A stretch of 64,000 bases of DNA from Naegleria gruberi (taxonomy: Eukaryota): assembly GCA_000004985.1 (NCBI GenBank), contig GG738873.1, one strand, 5' to 3'. The notes beneath the pieces were generated by a model. The model worked only from the letters and a program-made list of their open reading frames with translations. It had not been told where the DNA came from and ran no database searches. Both the position numbers and the translations under genes were made by a program. Shown piece by piece: positions 10,470-40,297 of the stretch (the stretch's first letter is position 1; each line of letters begins with the position of its first letter).

Positions 10470-12830
10470 ATGTTGAAACGATTCCTCAGTGCTAGTGTTG
10501 CTCATCATCACTATTCGAACACAACCTCATCATCAACAATACTCTCATCGGTAATTCCTTCAGGTAAAAATTTTGCCAATAATGCCTCTTCATTAGTATT
10601 AAATTTGAGAAATTATTCTTCGTCATCTTCTCAAGATAAGAAAGTTTCATCTCTAAAACACACAACACGTCAAAAGGATATTAAAAGTAATCAAGATAGT
10701 ACGGATTCTCTCGGAAATATTATGTTTGAATTACCAAGTGATAAAATCAGAAATGTAGGAATTATTGCTCATATTGATGCTGGAAAAACAACAACAACTG
10801 AAAGAATGCTTTATTATAGTGGATATAGTTCTCATTTGGGAAATGTTGATGATGGTGATACAATTACTGATTATATGCCACAAGAACAAGAAAGAGGTAT
10901 CACCATTACAAGTGCTGCAATTACATTTAAATGGAAGGATCATAGAGTTAATTTAATTGATACTCCTGGTCACGTTGACTTTACTTTTGAAGTGGAAAGA
11001 TCAGTGAGTGTTTTGGATGGTGCTGTTGCAATTTTTGATGTTGTCAATGGTGTGGAAGCTCAAAGTAAGACAGTTTGGAGACAAGCAGATAGATATAATG
11101 TACCAAGAATTGTTTACATGAATAAGATGGATAAAATTGGAGCTAATTTTGAAACAGCAATTGAAACCTTGTTGGAAAGATTGCCAAGTTGTCCAACCCC
11201 AATTCCTATTCAATTACCTAGTGGAACAGAAGATGCTTTCAATTCAGTTTTTGATTTGATTGAATTGAAGGAATATGTTTTCACAGGTGATGAATCTAGA
11301 ACTTATAACATTAAACCAATTCAGGAAAAGGATTTAGCAAGAGTTACGGAAGCAAGAGAAACAATGATTGATACTATTGCTAGTCTTGATGATGAATTAG
11401 GAGAAAAATATTTAAACGAGGAAGAAATTACATCTGAGGATATTCACAATGCTGTCAGAAGAGTTACAATTGAGAGAAAGGGTATTCCAATTTTCTGTGG
11501 AAGTTCATTGAAGAATAAGGGAGTTCAACAAGTTATGGATGGTATTGTGAGATATCTTCCTGGTCCAAAAATTGATGAAGCTTCAAAGCAAAGAGAATTG
11601 AATGCCTTTGCCTTCAAGGTTATTAACGATGTACAAAGAGGGTTATTGGTATTCGTTAGAGTTTATAGTGGTTCTGTTGATATCACTAAATCTCCAGCAA
11701 TTTTCAATCACTCAAAGAATCAAAAGGAAAGAATTGGTAAAGTTTATCAAATGCATGCCAACGTTCCTCAAGAAGTCAAGAAAATCTCAGCTGGTAACAT
11801 TGGTGTCCTTGTTGGTTTGAAAGAAACAGGTACAGGTGATATTCTTGTTGCTAAACAAGGATCCAAGACTGACCCGTCAATTCCACAACTTTCTGTTCCA
11901 AAACCTGTTTTCTTCTGTTCAATAGAGGCTGAAAATAGTGCAGATCAAGATGCTCTCGATAATGCCTTGTCAATTATGCAAAAGGAAGACCCAAGTTTAC
12001 AAATTACAAATAATGAAGAAACCAATCAAACACTTGTGAGTGGTATGGGTGAATTGCATTTGGAAATTATTAAGGATAGAATTTTAACAGAATACGGTAT
12101 CAATGTTGAAATGGGTGAGGTACAAATTTCATACAGAGAAACACTTACTGTCGAATCACCAGTCACATATTTGGAATTTGATAAGAAACTCACCACTGGA
12201 AAGAGACTTTATGCTAGGTTGTGGATTAAAGTTGGTCCTGCCGAATCTGGTGTAGGAAATAACGTCGAGTTTGATTGGGATGAGGATAAATGTACTCCAG
12301 ACATGAAGACTATCAAGAAATTTGAAAAATCCATTAGATATGGTCTTGAAAGTAGTTTCATGAGAGGTGCTCTCTTGGGATATCCAATCGAAGAAATCAA
12401 GGTTACAGTTGTTGGAGCATCAGTTTTGGATGAGAATAGAGAACAAATCGTTGTAGGAGAAGAATTACAAAATCAATCATTTATTCAATGTGCCCACTCA
12501 TTGTTTACTAAGATTTTGAAGGACAATGAACAGAGTGCCAGACTTTTGGAACCATATATGAATTTGGAAATTGAAACAGATAGAGCATATATTGGTACAA
12601 TTATGTCAGATTTGACAGGTTCTAGAAGAGCTAAGATTAAGGGTATGCAAGCTAGAAATGACCTCACAGTTATTTCAGCAGAAGTACCACTCAGTGAAAT
12701 GATTGGATACAGTTCTCATTTGAGATCACTCACATCTGGTCAATGCCACTATCATATGGACTTTGCTAGATATGAAACTTTACAACAAGAATATCAAAGA
12801 AAGCTCATTACAAAACTGAGAGGTTATTAG
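10470..12830 (+). CDS. GFM2: Mitochondrial elongation factor G2 / ribosome-releasing factor 2 (GFM2-like)
   Basis: G-domain motifs AHIDAGKTTTTERMLYYSG, GNVDDGDTITDYMPQEQERGITI, DTPGHVDFTFEVERS, NKMD. Full five-domain EF-G length. N-terminal MLKRFLSASVAHHH presequence. First ATG at 10470 (ORF called from TTG at 10452). Ends in TAG. Confidence 0.85.
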   Translation: MLKRFLSASVAHHHYSNTTSSSTILSSVIPSGKNFANNASSLVLNLRNYSSSSSQDKKVSSLKHTTRQKDIKSNQDSTDSLGNIMFELPSDKIRNVGIIAHIDAGKTTTTERMLYYSGYSSHLGNVDDGDTITDYMPQEQERGITITSAAITFKWKDHRVNLIDTPGHVDFTFEVERSVSVLDGAVAIFDVVNGVEAQSKTVWRQADRYNVPRIVYMNKMDKIGANFETAIETLLERLPSCPTPIPIQLPSGTEDAFNSVFDLIELKEYVFTGDESRTYNIKPIQEKDLARVTEARETMIDTIASLDDELGEKYLNEEEITSEDIHNAVRRVTIERKGIPIFCGSSLKNKGVQQVMDGIVRYLPGPKIDEASKQRELNAFAFKVINDVQRGLLVFVRVYSGSVDITKSPAIFNHSKNQKERIGKVYQMHANVPQEVKKISAGNIGVLVGLKETGTGDILVAKQGSKTDPSIPQLSVPKPVFFCSIEAENSADQDALDNALSIMQKEDPSLQITNNEETNQTLVSGMGELHLEIIKDRILTEYGINVEMGEVQISYRETLTVESPVTYLEFDKKLTTGKRLYARLWIKVGPAESGVGNNVEFDWDEDKCTPDMKTIKKFEKSIRYGLESSFMRGALLGYPIEEIKVTVVGASVLDENREQIVVGEELQNQSFIQCAHSLFTKILKDNEQSARLLEPYMNLEIETDRAYIGTIMSDLTGSRRAKIKGMQARNDLTVISAEVPLSEMIGYSSHLRSLTSGQCHYHMDFARYETLQQEYQRKLITKLRGY

Positions 12831-15489: not shown

Positions 15490-16506
15490 CTAACTAATGT
15501 TTTGAGTGGGATAATTAACAATCTTGCTTAAAATAGTGGCAAATTGAATGCATTCTTGAACTGAGTTTGGATTGCAGCTCACTATTGAAACCATATTCGA
15601 TTCTCCAAAGAAATCACCTTTTAAACTCTTGACAAATGAACATCCTTTGAGTGGTATGATGGGTTGTTGACATAGATCCAATGATCTTGCAATAGGCTTC
15701 AATTGTTTAAACACACAAGTCAATTCTTCACATTGATAATTGACCATTCGAATAAATTTCAATTGACTCTTATGAATGTGCTCTTTCTTTTCATTTTCAT
15801 CCATGATTCTCCTATCCACTTCTATTAAAATATAATTTGACATTGTAAATGATGACGTTTCCTTTTGATTGTAGAAACAAGATGTGTTAAATAAACATCT
15901 TTCCAAAAATTCCAATGAATCTTTCAAATTGAAAAGTGAAATCTTTGAATAGCCGTGAAGAATTGGTTCCTCATTGCTCTGAAATTTAATTACAGGAAAG
16001 TTTGCACTTAAAATATCATGAAATCGTTCACCTGTTAAGCAGAGACAAGATGCTTTGAGTGAAACTGAACTTTTCTGATCAGAAAATAAATGTTCAAACG
16101 ATTGTTGTATCATTCCATTCATATCATCATGTGTATTTCCCATCATTCTATGTCATTCATAACCAATTAATAGAAGAAAATATTAGAATTCAATTTGAAA
16201 GTAATCTTACATGTTCATATGGCTGACATCCTCTACAATCATAACAGTTCCATTGTATCCATGGAGTGTTTTATCAATGGTTGGCATGATTGCTTCTTTG
16301 AAATATATATTACAATTGACAGGACTTCATTCTTAAGAGAATTAGAATTTCTTGAAAACTTACTCTTCCACAACTCCATCATATTGATATTCTCTATTAT
16401 TTTTCAAGTCAACAATGCACTTTCCCTTGTTGTCCTTAATTTCCATGTCTGTCAATTGATTACCATCATAAACATGCAAGACAACCACTGCTTGACTTTT
16501 AGACAT
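15490..16506 (-). CDS. Kinesin motor-like protein with degenerate ATP-binding motifs (pseudo-kinesin A), 3 exons: complement(join(15490..16147,16211..16324,16364..16506))
   Basis: Kinesin-fold signatures (HGYNGTV, GMIQQSFEHLF, C-terminal PLKGCSFVKSLKGDFFGESNMVSIVSCNP...ILSKI matching [22 protein letters not shown]). P-loop GQTGSGKT replaced by IVEDVSHMN; switch II DLAGSE replaced by RMVNYQ. Introns 16325..16363 and 16148..16210 (GTAAGT/GTAAGA donors). Confidence 0.6.
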
Positions 16507-22068: not shown

Positions 22069-23238
22069 CTATTCGTTTGAAGGAAGTTTAATGGCACTTT
22101 CAACTTTTTGTCTACAAATTGGACACTTGTTTGTTTGCTCTTTCAGTGCAGTTGCACATCCCTCACATAAGGACATGTGACCACAAGGTAAAACAACAGT
22201 ATTAGCCTCTTCAGACATACAAACAACACATAAATTCTCTTCCTCTTCATGATGATGATCATTGGTGGATTGCTGATATATTTCTCCAACTTCAAAAAGT
22301 TCATTTCCAACTACAATTTTCTGTTTGTTGACCTTGATGGAATATGATTGATCATTACCCTGTTGTTCTAAAGAACACAAAGAATACTGTGTAGAGGTGT
22401 CACAAGACAATACCACTACAAGAGGAACGAGTTGAGATTGTAATTCAACTTCTTCATTCTCAACCTGTGGTGGAATATTTGAATATTGTAAATCTTCTCT
22501 ATTCGGGAATTCATTTTTGAAATCAATTAATATATCATTTAAAGTACATTCGACAAAAGCCGATTCATTATAGTCCTTTCTTGTATCATTGTCACTATTC
22601 AAATCCACTCGTGTTTCTTCTTGTGTTGAGTCTAAATTCATAAAGTCTTGATGATGGAATGATTTAGCAGGAATTTCATGACTCAATACTGATACATATG
22701 CAACTCTTCCATCAATCATAATTTCTCTAGCTTTTAAATATACAAATACTTTACATTCTTCAACAAATGAAGACCTAACATTAAATTTAAAAGAAAGTTG
22801 ATAGTGATTTTCTTGATTACTATTTTTAAGCAAAATTGAATTCTTTTGTATATTAATATCATTTCTTAATAACATTGTTTCCTTGAATTCGAATTTTCTA
22901 AATGTCGGTTGATCACTTCCTCCATGAATTGTATTATCAGAAGTGCCTAATAACCCCTCTACACCTCCATAATATCCAAATAAATTCATCAATTCTTCAG
23001 AGTTGTTGGTAGAGAAAAATTCCTGATTCAACAAGCCATCAATAATCATCGGAGCGCCTCCGAATAATAATTGAGGATGAGAATTTGTTGTATTTGATGA
23101 TGGTAATTCACTATTATTTAATGTTGTTGGAGCTGCACCACTTGGTGCATTTTCGTTTTCCGATTGATTTTCCAAATCGTCGTCATCTCTGAGAGTTCGG
23201 TGTTGTTGGTCTTGATGGAAAGTAAGAGTTTGTCCCAT
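22069..23238 (-). CDS. MGRN1 (mahogunin)-like N-myristoylated C3HC4 RING E3 ubiquitin ligase
   Basis: MGQTLTF N-terminus (MGxxxT myristoylation context). C-terminal RING CVVCMSEEANTVVLPCGHMSLCEGCATALKEQTNKCPICRQ. Central region aligns to the MGRN1 SPRY-like segment. Confidence 0.7.
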   Translation of the reverse strand: MGQTLTFHQDQQHRTLRDDDDLENQSENENAPSGAAPTTLNNSELPSSNTTNSHPQLLFGGAPMIIDGLLNQEFFSTNNSEELMNLFGYYGGVEGLLGTSDNTIHGGSDQPTFRKFEFKETMLLRNDINIQKNSILLKNSNQENHYQLSFKFNVRSSFVEECKVFVYLKAREIMIDGRVAYVSVLSHEIPAKSFHHQDFMNLDSTQEETRVDLNSDNDTRKDYNESAFVECTLNDILIDFKNEFPNREDLQYSNIPPQVENEEVELQSQLVPLVVVLSCDTSTQYSLCSLEQQGNDQSYSIKVNKQKIVVGNELFEVGEIYQQSTNDHHHEEEENLCVVCMSEEANTVVLPCGHMSLCEGCATALKEQTNKCPICRQKVESAIKLPSNE

Positions 23239-33312: not shown

Positions 33313-33909
33313 ATGACAACAACTGATGATCATCATCCTGTACAAGAAGAATCGACCACCACATCAGCAGAAGTGATCAATAATAATTTAGGATCATCAC
33401 CATCGGAACAATTAAATAATACACCATCCAATATACCATCATCACAAATATCACCAGTTAAATATACAACAGAATTATTTTGTACACAATATACGGAATT
33501 ACTTAGTAAATCAACAAATCAAAAGGAAATTGAACAAGAAGAACAATTTAAACAAATTGAAAATTTAATTGAAGTGTTATTGAAAAGATGTGATGAGCTT
33601 GGTGAAAATTTAGATTTAATTCAAACAAATTCGGTTCAAATCAATGATGAATTATTACCAAATTTATTGAAAATGATGGTACACGTCAAACAAATATATT
33701 CTAAAATTGATAATTTAAATTCTGTAGTTTCTAATGCTAAAGAGAAGGTCAATTCGTTAGACTTGAAATTAAGTGAATTTGAAAAACAAAAATCATCAGA
33801 AAAGTATGCCAAGTTTGTCCCAAGTTTTTTCAAATTTGGTAAATCAAATGATAATACTTCTGCTACTGAAAATGTCATTCAATTCAATAAAGATGATTAT
33901 TTATTGTAA
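33313..33909 (+). CDS. Hypothetical coiled-coil protein
   Basis: 198-aa ORF with AAAAAAAATG start context and heptad-like central region. Confidence 0.4.
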   Translation: MTTTDDHHPVQEESTTTSAEVINNNLGSSPSEQLNNTPSNIPSSQISPVKYTTELFCTQYTELLSKSTNQKEIEQEEQFKQIENLIEVLLKRCDELGENLDLIQTNSVQINDELLPNLLKMMVHVKQIYSKIDNLNSVVSNAKEKVNSLDLKLSEFEKQKSSEKYAKFVPSFFKFGKSNDNTSATENVIQFNKDDYLL

Positions 33910-34042
33910 AGAATAGATCTTTTCTTTATAGCTTAACAAGAGTAATATGTACAAGTTTATTAGCTTTTTGAATCATGACAAGATTCTTTAATATATTTGT
34001 TGTAATGAATTTTAAAAGATGAAGTAGATTGTATTACTTGGT

Positions 34043-35167
34043 TTAGAAACATTTTCTGTGAACAATTGCACAGCCAGCATCTTGATACTCCTCTGCCGTA
34101 ATCCACATGGATTGAAAGGTTGATAAAGAAGAGAGAATACTTCCACCAATCCAAACTGAATACTTTCTTTCTGGTGGAGCAATAACTTTAATCTTCATTG
34201 AAGCTGGAGCCATAGCTGTCAATTCCTTGTTCATTCTCTCAGCAATTCCTTCAAACATGGTTGAACCACCAGAAAGAACAACACTTCCATATAATTCCTT
34301 TCTAATATCAATATCACACTTTCCAATAGAATTGAAAGTTGTTTCGTGAACACCAGCTGCTTCCATTCCAATAAAATTTGGTTGAAATAATACTTCTGGA
34401 CATCTGAATCTTTCGTTACCAACTGTAATGACATTACCATCTGGCAATTCATATGACTTCTCAACTGAGGATGATTCAGCAGCAACCTTCATTTCTGCTT
34501 CAAAATCCAAAGCAACATAACAGAGCTTTTCCTTAATATCTCTGACGATTTCTCTTTCAGCAGTAGTATTGAATGAATAACCTCTTTCCATCAAAATCTT
34601 CATCAAGTAATCAGTCAAATCACGACCTGCCAAATCCAGTCTCAAAATGGCATGAGGCAAGGCATAACCTTCATAGATTGGAACAGTATGTGAAACACCA
34701 TCACCTGAATCCAAGACAATACCAGTAGTTCTACCAGTAGCGTACAAGGACAAGACAGCTTGAATAGCAACATACATGGCTGGAACTCTAAAAGTTTCGA
34801 ACATGATTTGAGTCATCTTTTCACGATTTGCCTTTGGATTTAATGGAGCTTCTGTCAATAAGACACCATGCTCTTCAGGACCAACTCTCAATTCATTATA
34901 GAAAGAGTGATGCCAAATCTTTTCCATATCATCCCAGTTGGTGATAATTCCGTGCTCAATTGGATATTTGAGAGCGAGGATTCCCTTCTTTGACATGGCT
35001 TCATCTCCAACATAGGCATCCTTACTACCCATTCCAACCATGATTGACCTATGTTTTGGTCTTCCAATTAATGATGGAAATACAGCTCGTGGAGCATCTT
35101 CACCAGCGAAACCAGCTTTACACATTCCAGAACCATTGTCAATTACGAGAGCTTGATTTTCTTTCAT
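34043..35167 (-). CDS. act: Actin (divergent isoform)
   Basis: 374 aa, collinear with conventional actin at roughly 80% identity by eye ([90 protein letters not shown]), with scattered non-conservative changes. Confidence 0.9.
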
Positions 35168-35441
35168 TTTGAGTTTAATATTATTATGTTTTTGAGTCTT
35201 TTGTTTTGTTTGGACGAATATCTCAAGTGCATAGCTCTGGATTTATAGAGTTTAGAATAGAATTTTGTTATGCCTTTGTCTTAGTATAATAGTTCATTGT
35301 TCCTTGACCTAAACTAGTTTGATTGTTTGGATGGAAACTCCAAATACCACTTTGAACGGAACATGTAGGAAGAAATTCAGTTTATTACACCTAACCCAAG
35401 TACATTTCGATATTGAAAATTAAAAAGTTTGGATTAATCCA

Positions 35442-36941
35442 ATGAACAATTTGAAAATTGAAATTTGTAAAAAAAATATGAAACCAGTCGAAACTGGGAA
35501 TGTAATATTTGCTGATGATGTAATCTATGAAATCCTATCTTTCCTAAATAATGAATGGAAGTTTATTTTATTGAACGGTTGTTTAGTTTCTAAACAATGG
35601 TTTACAATGATTAAGAAATATTCGAAACTAGAAGTTGAATTTAATCATCGGATCAATACTGAACAATTATTTTCAAGTGACTTTTTAAATTCAATTGCAA
35701 AATTGAGAATTGATAAATATTGTGGAATTTTATATCCGAGAAAATTCAATGAAAATCTTGGAATGATGACTCAGTTGACTGAATTGAATCTTTCAGCATG
35801 GAAATTAAAAATGGAACATGTTGAAGCTATTTCAAAATTATATAATTTGAAAAAATTAATCATTAATAATCGTTTCAATAATTTTGATACAAAGGAAGCA
35901 AAATTAATTGGGAAATTAGAAAATTTAACATTTTTGGAAATTTCTAGAATTGGTGATATGGGACTGAAATATATTTCAGAATTGAAAAATTTGAGAATTC
36001 TAAATATACATGATCCATGTTTTACCTTTACAAGGTATGGACTTGAATCCATCAGTGAAATGCCCAAATTGACTTGTTTGAAAGTTAGAGATTTGAAAAT
36101 TTGTAACGAAGGTGTCAATTGGATTAGTCAATCAACTCAATTGACTGATTTAGATTTTACAACCTGTACTTTAGATCAAGGATTAGAATCATTATGTGAA
36201 ATGAAGCGATTAACAAGTCTATGGTTGCCAAGTTGCCCAAAATATGCAAACAAAGTTGAATTAATTGGCCAATTGACACAATTGACTAGTCTCAACATTT
36301 GTGCTAGAGGAATTAATGATCAAGATGGAGTACATATCAAAGAATTGACGCAATTGACTGAACTTGATATTAGTCTGAATCAAATTGTTTTTGAAACTAT
36401 CGAATCTATTAGCCAATTGACCAATTTAATTATTCTAAACATGTCCTATTGTAATATTGGAGATGATGGAGCATGCCTTATTGGAGAATTGAGTCAATTA
36501 AGAGAGTTGAAAGTTTTAAAAAATTTAATTACTGATGCAGGAGTTATTTCAATCAGTCAATTAAAACATCTTATCAAGTTGGATATTAGTAATAATGAAA
36601 TTAGTAAGACTGGAGCTGAATCAATTAGTGGATTGAGAAATTTAACTTACCTTAATATTGGATATAATTTAATTGGAGATGAGGGATGCGATTTCATTTG
36701 TGATCTGTCTCTATTAAGATCTCTTCATGCTGATAAAACTGGTATCAGCTCAGAAGGTATCAAGTCAATCAGAAATTTGAGAAAATTGACTAGTCTTTCT
36801 TTATCAAATAATAATATTTGTGATGAAGGATGCAAATTCATTAATATTAAGCAATTGAACTACCTTAATGTCAAGTCAAATCCATGTAATGCAGATTTAA
36901 GTTTCTCAAATCTTTACTCTAAAACCACATTATTTCCATAA
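35442..36941 (+). CDS. Leucine-rich-repeat protein (RNI-like LRR), possible F-box at N-terminus
   Basis: 499-aa intronless ORF. About 16 tandem ~24-aa LRRs (L..L.L..N.I.D.G...I..L..L). N-terminal VIYEILSFL...LVSKQW resembles an F-box. Confidence 0.7.
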   Translation: MNNLKIEICKKNMKPVETGNVIFADDVIYEILSFLNNEWKFILLNGCLVSKQWFTMIKKYSKLEVEFNHRINTEQLFSSDFLNSIAKLRIDKYCGILYPRKFNENLGMMTQLTELNLSAWKLKMEHVEAISKLYNLKKLIINNRFNNFDTKEAKLIGKLENLTFLEISRIGDMGLKYISELKNLRILNIHDPCFTFTRYGLESISEMPKLTCLKVRDLKICNEGVNWISQSTQLTDLDFTTCTLDQGLESLCEMKRLTSLWLPSCPKYANKVELIGQLTQLTSLNICARGINDQDGVHIKELTQLTELDISLNQIVFETIESISQLTNLIILNMSYCNIGDDGACLIGELSQLRELKVLKNLITDAGVISISQLKHLIKLDISNNEISKTGAESISGLRNLTYLNIGYNLIGDEGCDFICDLSLLRSLHADKTGISSEGIKSIRNLRKLTSLSLSNNNICDEGCKFINIKQLNYLNVKSNPCNADLSFSNLYSKTTLFP

Positions 36942-36991
36942 TAGAACCAGTTTCGGATAAATCTTATTTTATCCAGTCGATGTTGATTCAT

Positions 36992-39436
36992 TTATTGCCT
37001 CAGAATTTCAAATTCCTCAATTTTTGCATAACTTGATGCTCTTTTGTCCTGTCTTACTGATTCTGACACTATTTCTATGTCTCTTTTCAATTCATCACTG
37101 GCATATTTAAGGGCTACTCCTTGTAACTTGACAACTGTTAACACGAATAGTCTATCATTTCTTAATGAAACATCTGCATATTCAAATGCTAGACCATTTT
37201 GTGATGCTGCAAGTAAAACTATCTCTCTATCTTTCTTGAGTGATTCAATCGCGTAACAAAGGGCTTTACCATTCTGTTTCACAGCCCCAGTTACTATTTC
37301 TCTATCTTCCCTTAATATCAAGTCAGCAAATTTTAAGGATTTTCCATTTTGTAGAACAGCTTTTAATACAATTTCTCTATCTTTCTTTAAAGATATATCA
37401 ACGTATTGTAAAATAAGTCCATTTCTTTGTAGCGCCAATAGTACAAATTCTCTATCTCTTTTGAATACATCATTTGCAAGTGAAAACTCCCGTGGATTAT
37501 ATTTGATGGTGAGTAACAAGATATTCTTATCTTTTCTGTGATATTCCTTATAGACTGTTCGTGGTAATAAATGCCCAAAAGGAATGGAGGATATCACGCC
37601 TTGATGATTATTCCCATCTTCAATTATTTCTTTTGACATGATTAATGAATCAATATTAATTGATTCATCTGCATATTCCACAGCATCCACATTTTGATTT
37701 ACAGCTACGGTAACTATTTCTCTATCTTTTCTTAATGAAGGATCAGCATATCTAAGAGCCCTTCCATCTTGTTTTACTGCCATTAATACTATTTCTCTAT
37801 CACAATTCAAAGGATATTCAATAAATTCGAGAGCTCTTCCATTTGTTGACACTGCTATTAAAGCCATGTCTTTTTGTTTCTTAAATATTTCGTTCGCATA
37901 TTTAAGAGCAGAACCATTTTGATGAATTGCCTTTCGTACTATTTCTTCTTCTCTTTTCAATGACTCATCAGCATACTTCAATGAGCATCCATTTTGTCCA
38001 ATGGCAGTTTCAACAATCTCTCTATCTTTTCTGAAACGATAAGCTGCGCTTGCTAAATGCCAGCCATTTTTTCTGACAGCTTCCAATGCAATTTCTCTAT
38101 CTTCTCTAAATGATTTATCAAGATGCCTAAAGATTGATCTACTACTACTTTTAACGGCCTCCAATACTATTTCTCTATCTTTCCTTAATTCAAAATTAAC
38201 ATATTTGATGGAATAACCAAACTATTTAACTGCTTGCAATACAATTTCTTTTTCGTTCTTGAAATCTTCTTTCGCATATTTGAGATAATATCCAAATTGT
38301 TTAACAGATTGTAAGGTTATCTCCCTATCATCTTTATCAAGTAGTTCAAGAGAGACACCAAGAGAAGCACAGATTAATTGAACATTCCTATTCTCTGCAA
38401 GAGCTTGATTGAGGTGATGAAATTGATGAGATAACATGATTGGTCCTTCAATCTGTCCATTTTCAGAGAATATTCTTTTCAAAATTTGTTGACAAGAAGG
38501 TCTATTCTCTGGATTCTCACTCAACATTTCCACAAGCAATTTAAATATAAAAATCCATCCATCTTCATCTTCCTCTAAATTACCTAACTCTATTAATTTT
38601 CGTACAGTTTCCACTTCATTAGATATTATTTCTCTTACCATAGAAGAGTATTGATCTAGATGTGTTATTCTGTTTTCATTTGTTGGAAAAAGAATAAACA
38701 GAATTAATCTAGCCAAACTCCAAATATCACTCTTGAACGATTCTCCCAATTTTGCACATTCAGGTGCAACAAAACCTGGACTACCATTAAGAGTATAACT
38801 CTCATGCATGTTGAGATCATTCGAATAATCAATGTGGTCCATTCCTTGGTTAGAAAACCGATCATCATTAGAAATGGCAATCCCAAAATCTGCCAAAACA
38901 ACATCAATAGCACATATTTTACAATCAGTATCATGAAGTGAAATAATAATATTCTCTGGTTTGATATCTCTGTGAATTATGTTTGCCTCCTCAAGTTTAC
39001 AAAGAGCATTCACAATTCTAATGAAAATTTGTAAAATTTGACATAATAAAATCCTTCCATTCTTGTTAATTTGCATATCTGTATAATTTTTCAAATCAAT
39101 TCCTCTATATTTTGATACTGTCACAACCATGTCATTAAAATTATCCACAAAATCAAATGTCAATAAACTGGCATCATGTAATTCTTCTGAAATTTTAGCA
39201 AATTTCCAATCACCAACCGGACAATCATCAAAATCATCATCTTCTCCTCGTTTAACAATTTTTACAACATATTCCTGATTGTCAATGGATAGACATTTGC
39301 AAACTACAACATTGTTTCCCTTCTTAAATATTTGAATAGGAATATATTGAATATTATTAATGAAAAATGGTTTTCCAAGCCTGGAGAGAGCCTCGTATAG
39401 ATTTTGATCATCGTTCGTACTTTGATGTTCAATCAT
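36992..39436 (-). CDS. Ser/Thr protein kinase fused to a ~13-unit tandem repeat array (DUF4116-like 'REIVLxAVxQNGxALxYA' repeats); reading frame interrupted by a single in-frame TAG at 38222..38224
   Basis: Kinase subdomains (VVKIVKRG, HRDIKPENIII, DFGIA, APE) in ORF 38222..39436. The repeat array begins at the end of that ORF and continues in the SAME frame through the TAG into ORF 36992..38164 (…IVLQAVK*FGYSIKYVNFELRKDREIVLEAVK…). The TAG occupies the Gln position of the repeat consensus (previous unit …SVKQFGYYLKYA). Confidence 0.6.
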
Positions 39437-39587
39437 TTTTTAATGAATTTATTCATAATTTTAGTGGCAGTGTTGCATATTTAAGTTGATTGTAAACCTC
39501 TAATTAAGCAACATACTGTATTGGATCAACATCATTCAGAATACCAAATATTTACTGTTCATAATTCCCAATAAGCTGAAATAAAAA

Positions 39588-39705
39588 GACTACAGCACCA
39601 CAGGTTCCCAAGTTGTCTCCAACCTCAGTACTGATGTGGCTCGACGATGCTTAACTTCTCAAATCGGACGGGATGAGGTGCATTCATCGTGATATGGCCG
39701 TAGCC
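39588..39705 (-). rRNA. 5S ribosomal RNA
   Basis: Minus-strand GGCTACGGCCATATCACGATGAATGCACCTCATCCCGTCCGATTTGAGAAGTTAAGCATCGTCGAGCCACATCAGTACTGAGGTTGGAGACAACTTGGGAACCTGTGGTGCTGTAGTC matches the 5S consensus (GCCTACGGCCATACCAC...CCCGTCCGATCT..GAAGTTAAGC...TTAGTACT...TGGGAA.CC.GGTGCTGTAGGC). The 5' and 3' ends pair as helix I. Followed by TTTTTATTT Pol III terminator. Confidence 0.85.
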
Positions 39706-39949
39706 ATTCATTGATTTAAAATGTTGAATATTAATGAAGAAAACTATGAGGTTATTTCTTGATGAATATTACCTGATTGGTTAAAGTTAGGAAATTCAGC
39801 AACATAACACGTCAATTGATGTGACGATTGAATTTCAACTCCATAAAAGATTAACAAATAAATGTTGCGTTAGTATGTAGAAATTCAAAAATTAGAATTA
39901 ATTCTGTTGATCATTTATTTACATTTTGGCTATACAAGTATTTGATGTT

Positions 39950-40297
39950 TCATTTAAAGGTTCTATGCAACAATTCCATTTGATATTGTTGTTTTTCAAT
40001 TTGCTGTAATTCAATTAATTTTAATCTTCTTTGCTCCACTGATTTATTATATTCAGATCTTGATGAAATCAATGGATATCTTCCACTCACGATTCGTTGA
40101 AGTGAATACTTTGGTTTGTTCTTTTCCCAAAAATCTACTTTTCTATTTGTTATTTCCTTATCCCGAACATAATCAGAAAAGTATTTCAGTTTACTCTCTT
40201 CCTTAATTCTAGCATCCAAATTTGATGGATTATTGGGATGCTTATTTCCAAACATTTTTTTTAAATTGTAGTTTATTTTGGCGGGTAAAACCATCAA
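39950..40297 (-). CDS. Small basic hypothetical protein (~100 aa)
   Basis: ORF MMVLPAKINYNLKKMFGNKHPNN... Second in-frame ATG, in AAAAAAATG context, is probably the start. Confidence 0.35.
   Translation of the reverse strand: MMVLPAKINYNLKKMFGNKHPNNPSNLDARIKEESKLKYFSDYVRDKEITNRKVDFWEKNKPKYSLQRIVSGRYPLISSRSEYNKSVEQRRLKLIELQQIEKQQYQMELLHRTFK

Follow-up and report, generated by a model that had tools for sequence, protein, structure and literature searches.

The window analysed here, a 64-kb (64,000-nucleotide) stretch of Naegleria gruberi DNA, contains a genuine, intact chromosomal 5S rRNA gene of 118 nt at positions 39588..39705 on the minus strand. Taking all of the evidence together, we regard it with high confidence as a bona fide N. 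gruberi 5S gene that belongs to a dispersed family and is most likely transcribed by Pol III as a type-1 gene. The existence of numerous nuclear N. gruberi 5S genes unlinked to rDNA has been known since 2012, and because so many unlinked copies are already published, this gene is of little weight as a discovery. The only new findings are that 5S occupancy of the surrounding orthologous interval varies between species and that the gene is associated with an adjacent 6-kb lineage-specific block.

Identity and structure of the 5S rRNA gene

A preliminary description of this DNA had suggested a covariance search with the Rfam model RF00001, and this search returned a match at 39705..39587 on the minus strand with a score of 105.4 bits, well over the gathering score of 38 (E = 4.4e-22). 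The match spans model positions 1-120 and is not truncated, which bears out the canonical, full-length 118-nt 5S rRNA that had been described and disposes of a truncated pseudogene, the alternative that had been considered alongside it. The one base by which the Rfam match extends beyond the mature 118-nt RNA (39587) is the first T of the putative terminator.

Folding of the 118-nt RNA predicted helices I-V arranged around the canonical three-way junction, with an energy of -40.3 kcal/mol and a centroid structure identical to the minimum free energy structure. Helix I, which had been anticipated from the ends of the gene, forms by pairing of GGCUACGGC with GCUGUAGUC and is closed by the 5' and 3' ends of the RNA. 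When nine related 5S sequences were compared, including one from Willaertia magna and those of the A+T-rich eukaryote contigs VFQM/VFQO, double changes that keep pairing were found at 18 of the 38 predicted pairs. These compensatory pairs include G1-C118 in helix I, which is exchanged for A-U, as well as changes in helix II in Willaertia. The consensus structure derived from all nine sequences had the same canonical shape as the single-sequence fold. Judged from its sequence, this copy is almost certainly functional.

Four ORFs in the window correspond exactly to N. gruberi NEG-M proteins, namely actin, L12, S25 and a kinase (EFC43567-EFC43573). A giant-virus or organelle origin of the window was rejected on account of the exact nuclear proteins among them (actin, S25 and L12). 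In a scan of viral contigs, a 24-nt pattern from 5S had 0 matches.

The gene belongs to a dispersed family unlinked to rDNA

No second 5S gene was detected in the 64-kb window, even in a permissive Rfam run (E<=1), and a 21-mer taken from the gene, searched with <=3 mismatches, found one match in the window compared to 0 expected. The 64 kb also lack any Rfam match to SSU, LSU or 5.8S rRNA or to tRNA, leaving the 5S gene as the sole Rfam match and agreeing with its earlier portrayal as solitary and outside an rDNA context.

A genome-wide count of 5S copies, also proposed in the preliminary description, had already been tabulated, with 279 putative 5S genes listed on 117 scaffolds of the N. gruberi genome and reported to be unlinked to the rDNA unit (Feng et al. 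2012, PMC3369914, Table S1). The tabulated hits are ~117 nt long, with 264 of the 279 reaching at least 110 nt. From the Table S1 coordinates we computed a median within-scaffold, start-to-start gap of 33.9 kb, and gaps of <1 kb occurred in 1 of 162 cases and gaps of <2 kb in 9, showing that the N. gruberi 5S family is dispersed with a few loose pairs. Table 1 of the same paper marks the N. gruberi 5S arrangement as 'tandem', a label that is at odds with its own Table S1 coordinates. A tandem array at the locus studied here is ruled out by the presence of one copy in 64 kb together with this median spacing. With a genome size of ~41 Mb, ~279 copies amount to one 5S gene per ~150 kb, so the presence of one in 64 kb is close to expectation.

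The 5.8S, 18S and 28S genes are located on a 14-kb extrachromosomal circle (CERE) that is present at 3,000-5,000 copies and does not carry 5S (PMC5805870). Linkage of the 5S gene to an 18S-5.8S-28S unit is ruled out both by this arrangement and by the lack of other rRNA in the window. The 5S output of a few hundred chromosomal Pol III genes must be balanced in Naegleria against ~3,000-5,000 Pol I templates that are extrachromosomal. [quoted passage not shown]

The closest known system is the set of N. gruberi 5S genes described by Feng et al. 2012 (PMC3369914), which shares with the window gene the organism, the kind of gene, the scatter and the lack of rDNA linkage, and for which an internal control region (ICR) and an upstream TATA box were reported. 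Acanthamoeba castellanii, like Naegleria a free-living amoeba, also has dispersed 5S genes separate from 18S/28S, with ~100 single genes situated among protein-coding genes on most chromosomes (PMC9528979). However, Acanthamoeba (Amoebozoa) is unrelated to Naegleria (Heterolobosea), and its 18S/28S rDNA is chromosomal rather than carried on a circle. Dispersed organisation, as claimed in the preliminary description, is upheld by the spacing of the tabulated copies, but its value as a lineage-informative character is only weak because amoebae of other lineages, Acanthamoeba among them, have the same arrangement. The comparison with Dictyostelium drawn in the same description is mere analogy, since the window comes from N. 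gruberi NEG-M. In Dictyostelium, the 5S gene resides on the extrachromosomal rDNA palindrome. Dictyostelium and Naegleria are alike in having large rRNA genes on extrachromosomal elements, whereas the 5S genes of Naegleria are off the element, chromosomal and dispersed.

Related 5S genes in metagenome contigs

Scanning metagenomes with a 24-nt loop-C pattern yielded 14 contigs, each with one 5S gene. The 5S gene on contig L006 differs from the window gene at 1 of 118 nt, having A24 in place of U24, and the 361-aa protein encoded beside it clusters at >=90% identity with N. gruberi EFC43308.1. Since EFC43308.1 maps to a scaffold of 401,612 bp, distinct from that of the N. gruberi proteins of the window (461,873 bp), L006 represents a second such locus from a genome of N. 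gruberi type. Similarity between the window and L006 is confined to -2 through +8 around the gene and there is no common flank. The difference of a single nucleotide in 118 between copies in separate genomic contexts indicates that the 5S sequence is held constant.

Eleven contigs (L002-L005, L007-L011, L013 and L014; VFQM/VFQO) each carry a single, near-identical 5S gene (GGGTACGGTCATCTTG...). These loci have unrelated flanks, a TATA-like sequence near -25 and a T-run terminator. The contigs come from one or two metagenome assemblies and represent an A+T-rich eukaryote in which the 5S genes likewise appear dispersed.

Putative promoter and terminator elements

Xenopus-type 5S genes are arranged in a tandem array and have a TFIIIA-dependent, type-1 Pol III promoter consisting of box A, an intermediate element (IE) and box C. 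The window gene aligned collinearly with a Xenopus-type sequence, agrees with the box A consensus at the same coordinates and with box C at 16 of 18 positions, and likewise ends in a T-run. The candidate box A of the ICR, AGTTAAGCATCGTCG, is located at 39642..39656 on the minus strand (+50..+64), where it matches the consensus of Feng et al. 2012 exactly and at the canonical position. A box C-like element, GAGGTTGGAGACAACTTG, follows at 39609..39626 on the minus strand (+80..+97) and agrees with 16 of the 18 consensus positions. Box A and box C, identified by consensus matching, are considered putative elements. Unlike Xenopus-type genes, the window gene is solitary, has a TATA-like sequence upstream, and does not conform to the IE consensus at the canonical +67..+72. 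Feng et al. reported that they could not detect TFIIIA in N. gruberi (PMC3369914), and a classical TFIIIA-dependent mechanism for the N. gruberi 5S genes is therefore only assumed.

Upstream of the gene, a TATA-like sequence, TTAATATT, can be read at 39727..39734 on the minus strand (-29..-22), along with a second A/T run, TTTTAAAT, at 39714-39721 on the same strand (-16..-9). An upstream TATA box in addition to the internal control region has been noted for N. gruberi 5S genes (PMC3369914). Of 11 5S loci that are A+T-rich and have flanks with no other resemblance, 10 have a TATA-like 4-mer starting within -33..-17, compared to 3.8 +/- 1.6 loci when random windows were drawn from the same sources, and 0 of 2000 trials reached 10. 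The window and motif set were picked post hoc after viewing the data, so this recurrence, in which just 3 of the 11 loci are from Naegleria or Willaertia, is supportive rather than proof.

The sequence TTTTT-A-TTT lies directly after C118 at 39579..39587 on the minus strand, with the T5 run at 39587-39583, and corresponds to the oligo-T terminator mentioned in the preliminary description. Contigs L006 (N. gruberi-type) and L020 (Willaertia) also have a T-run directly past the 3' end of their 5S genes. Termination of Pol III at T-runs is established, and the element here is likely to have this function.

Expression of the window copy would most likely involve Pol III transcription from a type-1 promoter formed by the ICR (box A and the box C-like element) and the upstream TATA-like sequence near -25. 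The transcript would extend from G1 (39705) to the T5 run right past C118, and the 5S RNA would then be incorporated into the large ribosomal subunit, with 18S/5.8S/28S supplied by the separate extrachromosomal rDNA circle. A type-1 Pol III gene aided by an upstream TATA, as Feng et al. proposed, would be the simplest reading of these elements.

Neighbouring genes

The 5S gene is positioned within a 513-bp spacer that extends from the stop of a 115-aa ORF (39950) to the ATG of a Pkinase+DUF4116 ORF (39436), and it shares the minus strand with both ORFs. This matches the strand and the spacer of ~500 bp between a kinase start and a small ORF given previously. The upstream neighbour, the 115-aa ORF (39950..40297, minus strand), has no Pfam domain, and 244 bp separate its stop codon from the 5S +1 position that follows. 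It has orthologues in N. fowleri and in Naegleria sp. (contig L017), as well as a weak one in Willaertia. The downstream neighbour, the protein kinase + DUF4116 ORF (EFC43569.1; 38222..39436, minus strand), has its ATG 151 bp past the 5S 3' end. A search for homologues of this kinase at E<=1e-20 returned none beyond itself, making it of no use as a synteny anchor.

A single TAG (38222-38224, minus strand) divides the kinase ORF from an in-frame DUF4116 ORF (36992-38164). At the position of the TAG, Q (CAG) is the usual residue of the 25-aa DUF4116 repeat (...EIVLQAVK*FGYSIKYV...), and the 75-nt period of the repeat continues uninterrupted through the stop. Either the TAG is a nonsense codon that splits a gene of ~814 aa, or it stems from a sequencing error.

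5S occupancy of the orthologous interval varies between species

Orthologous loci were anchored on S25 and then analysed by tblastn with the ORFs of the window. The order L12 - adenylate kinase - S25 - 439-aa ORF - 115-aa ORF - 198-aa gene is kept in N. fowleri (L019) and in the Naegleria-like metagenome contig L017. The homologue search for the 198-aa gene (33313-33909) gave only two matches. In both N. fowleri and L017, the 115-aa and 198-aa genes are direct neighbours in convergent orientation, separated by 99 bp and 3 bp, respectively, and no 5S gene was found at this interval in either one even at E<=1.

In N. gruberi, a 6,040-bp block (33910..39949) separates the 198-aa gene from the 115-aa ORF and is specific to this species among the compared genomes. 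The block encodes an actin paralogue, an LRR protein, a DUF4116 protein and the kinase, and the 5S gene occupies its border on the side of the 115-aa ORF. A search for terminal or direct repeats at the block edges and around the 5S gene found only chance-level A/T-rich repeats and the internal DUF4116/LRR repeats, and no transposase, reverse-transcriptase or other transposon-type domains were detected within the block.

Willaertia magna has a 5S gene at 15795-15913 (+) of L020 (JBEGDK010000125.1; 107.3 bits), within a ~370-bp interval bounded by genes orthologous to the 198-aa gene and the 115-aa ORF. The 5S gene points its 3' end toward the 115-aa ORF in Willaertia versus its 5' end in N. gruberi. 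The segment of Willaertia L020 comprising the small ORF, the 198-aa gene and an HMG-box gene appears inverted relative to Naegleria. The S25 locus of Acrasis kona (L021) showed no synteny with the window and so was unusable as an outgroup.

The history of the interval could consist of an ancestral 5S gene followed by two losses and an inversion, or of independent gains at this one interval between convergent genes, and we estimate the likelihoods of these two histories to be similar. A more specific scenario is that the 5S gene was ancestral to Naegleria and Willaertia and was lost in N. fowleri and L017, with old Pol III loci favouring the insertion of new genes, in this case the four lineage-specific protein genes of the block; we consider this scenario rather unlikely. 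Mobile elements target Pol III genes in yeast and Dictyostelium, and the proposed insertion of new genes beside the 5S gene would resemble this targeting. The presence or absence of 5S at this interval in Naegleria versus Willaertia provides a small handle on the rate of locus turnover.

Alternative accounts of the gene

An intact-looking 5S gene could be silent or a minor variant, in effect a young pseudogene, while the bulk of 5S rRNA is made from other copies. Position 24, in loop B, is U in the window gene and A in L006, Willaertia and most other relatives, and this minority state is why the gene could be a minor variant. Its location inside the lineage-specific 6-kb block, by a fast-evolving, TAG-interrupted kinase, would also fit relaxed constraint. 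However, U24 is the sole substitution and falls in an unpaired loop. No helix is disrupted, and box A, the terminator and the TATA-like element are likewise intact. The Rfam score is also as high as those of relatives (105.4 versus 106.3 and 107.3 bits). A silent or minor copy is thus distinctly improbable, and the bona fide, transcribed member of the dispersed family remains the preferred interpretation.

The preliminary description had also raised retroposition, with shared flanks as a possible sign of it. If this copy had arrived by RNA-mediated retroposition or with a mobile element, dispersal of the family would reflect mobility. The similarity between the window and L006, from -2 to +8, roughly follows the bounds of the transcript, as would be expected for a retroposed RNA, and 5S occupancy of the orthologous interval varies across species. 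However, selection on the gene combined with free drift of the flanks would produce similarity over the transcript length just as readily, and the L006 copy shares no flank with the window. The longest direct repeat between upstream and downstream sequence is 6 nt, and 281 of 300 shuffles gave one at least as long; neither the window nor the L006 locus has an above-chance target-site duplication. Furthermore, the 5S gene is full length and followed by a T-run instead of an A-tail, and the 6-kb block is without terminal repeats and without a transposase or reverse-transcriptase domain. We therefore give arrival by retroposition or a mobile element very little credence. A 5S retropseudogene or 5S-derived SINE was rejected given the full length and the lack of both a target-site duplication and an A-rich tail.

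Other features of the window

A palindrome with a 5-bp stem, CGTCA-CATCAAT-TGACG, is located at 39810-39826, ~105-121 nt before the start of the 5S gene and within the 3' flanking sequence of the 115-aa ORF. A scan for bacterial-type promoters and terminators near the 5S gene was set aside as irrelevant in a eukaryote; its 'terminator' matches were this hairpin and part of 5S helix I.

Two C/D-box snoRNA matches scored far under their gathering scores, snoCD11 at 22641-22700 (+) with 27.3 bits and sR28 at 10484-10537 (-) with 20.7 bits, and are probably due to chance. At the end of the window, positions 60001-64000 have a G+C content of 17-24%, compared to ~32% elsewhere, and contain short A/T-rich tandem repeats. 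Long ORFs persist in this low-G+C region, at 60582-61421 and 62164-63477.
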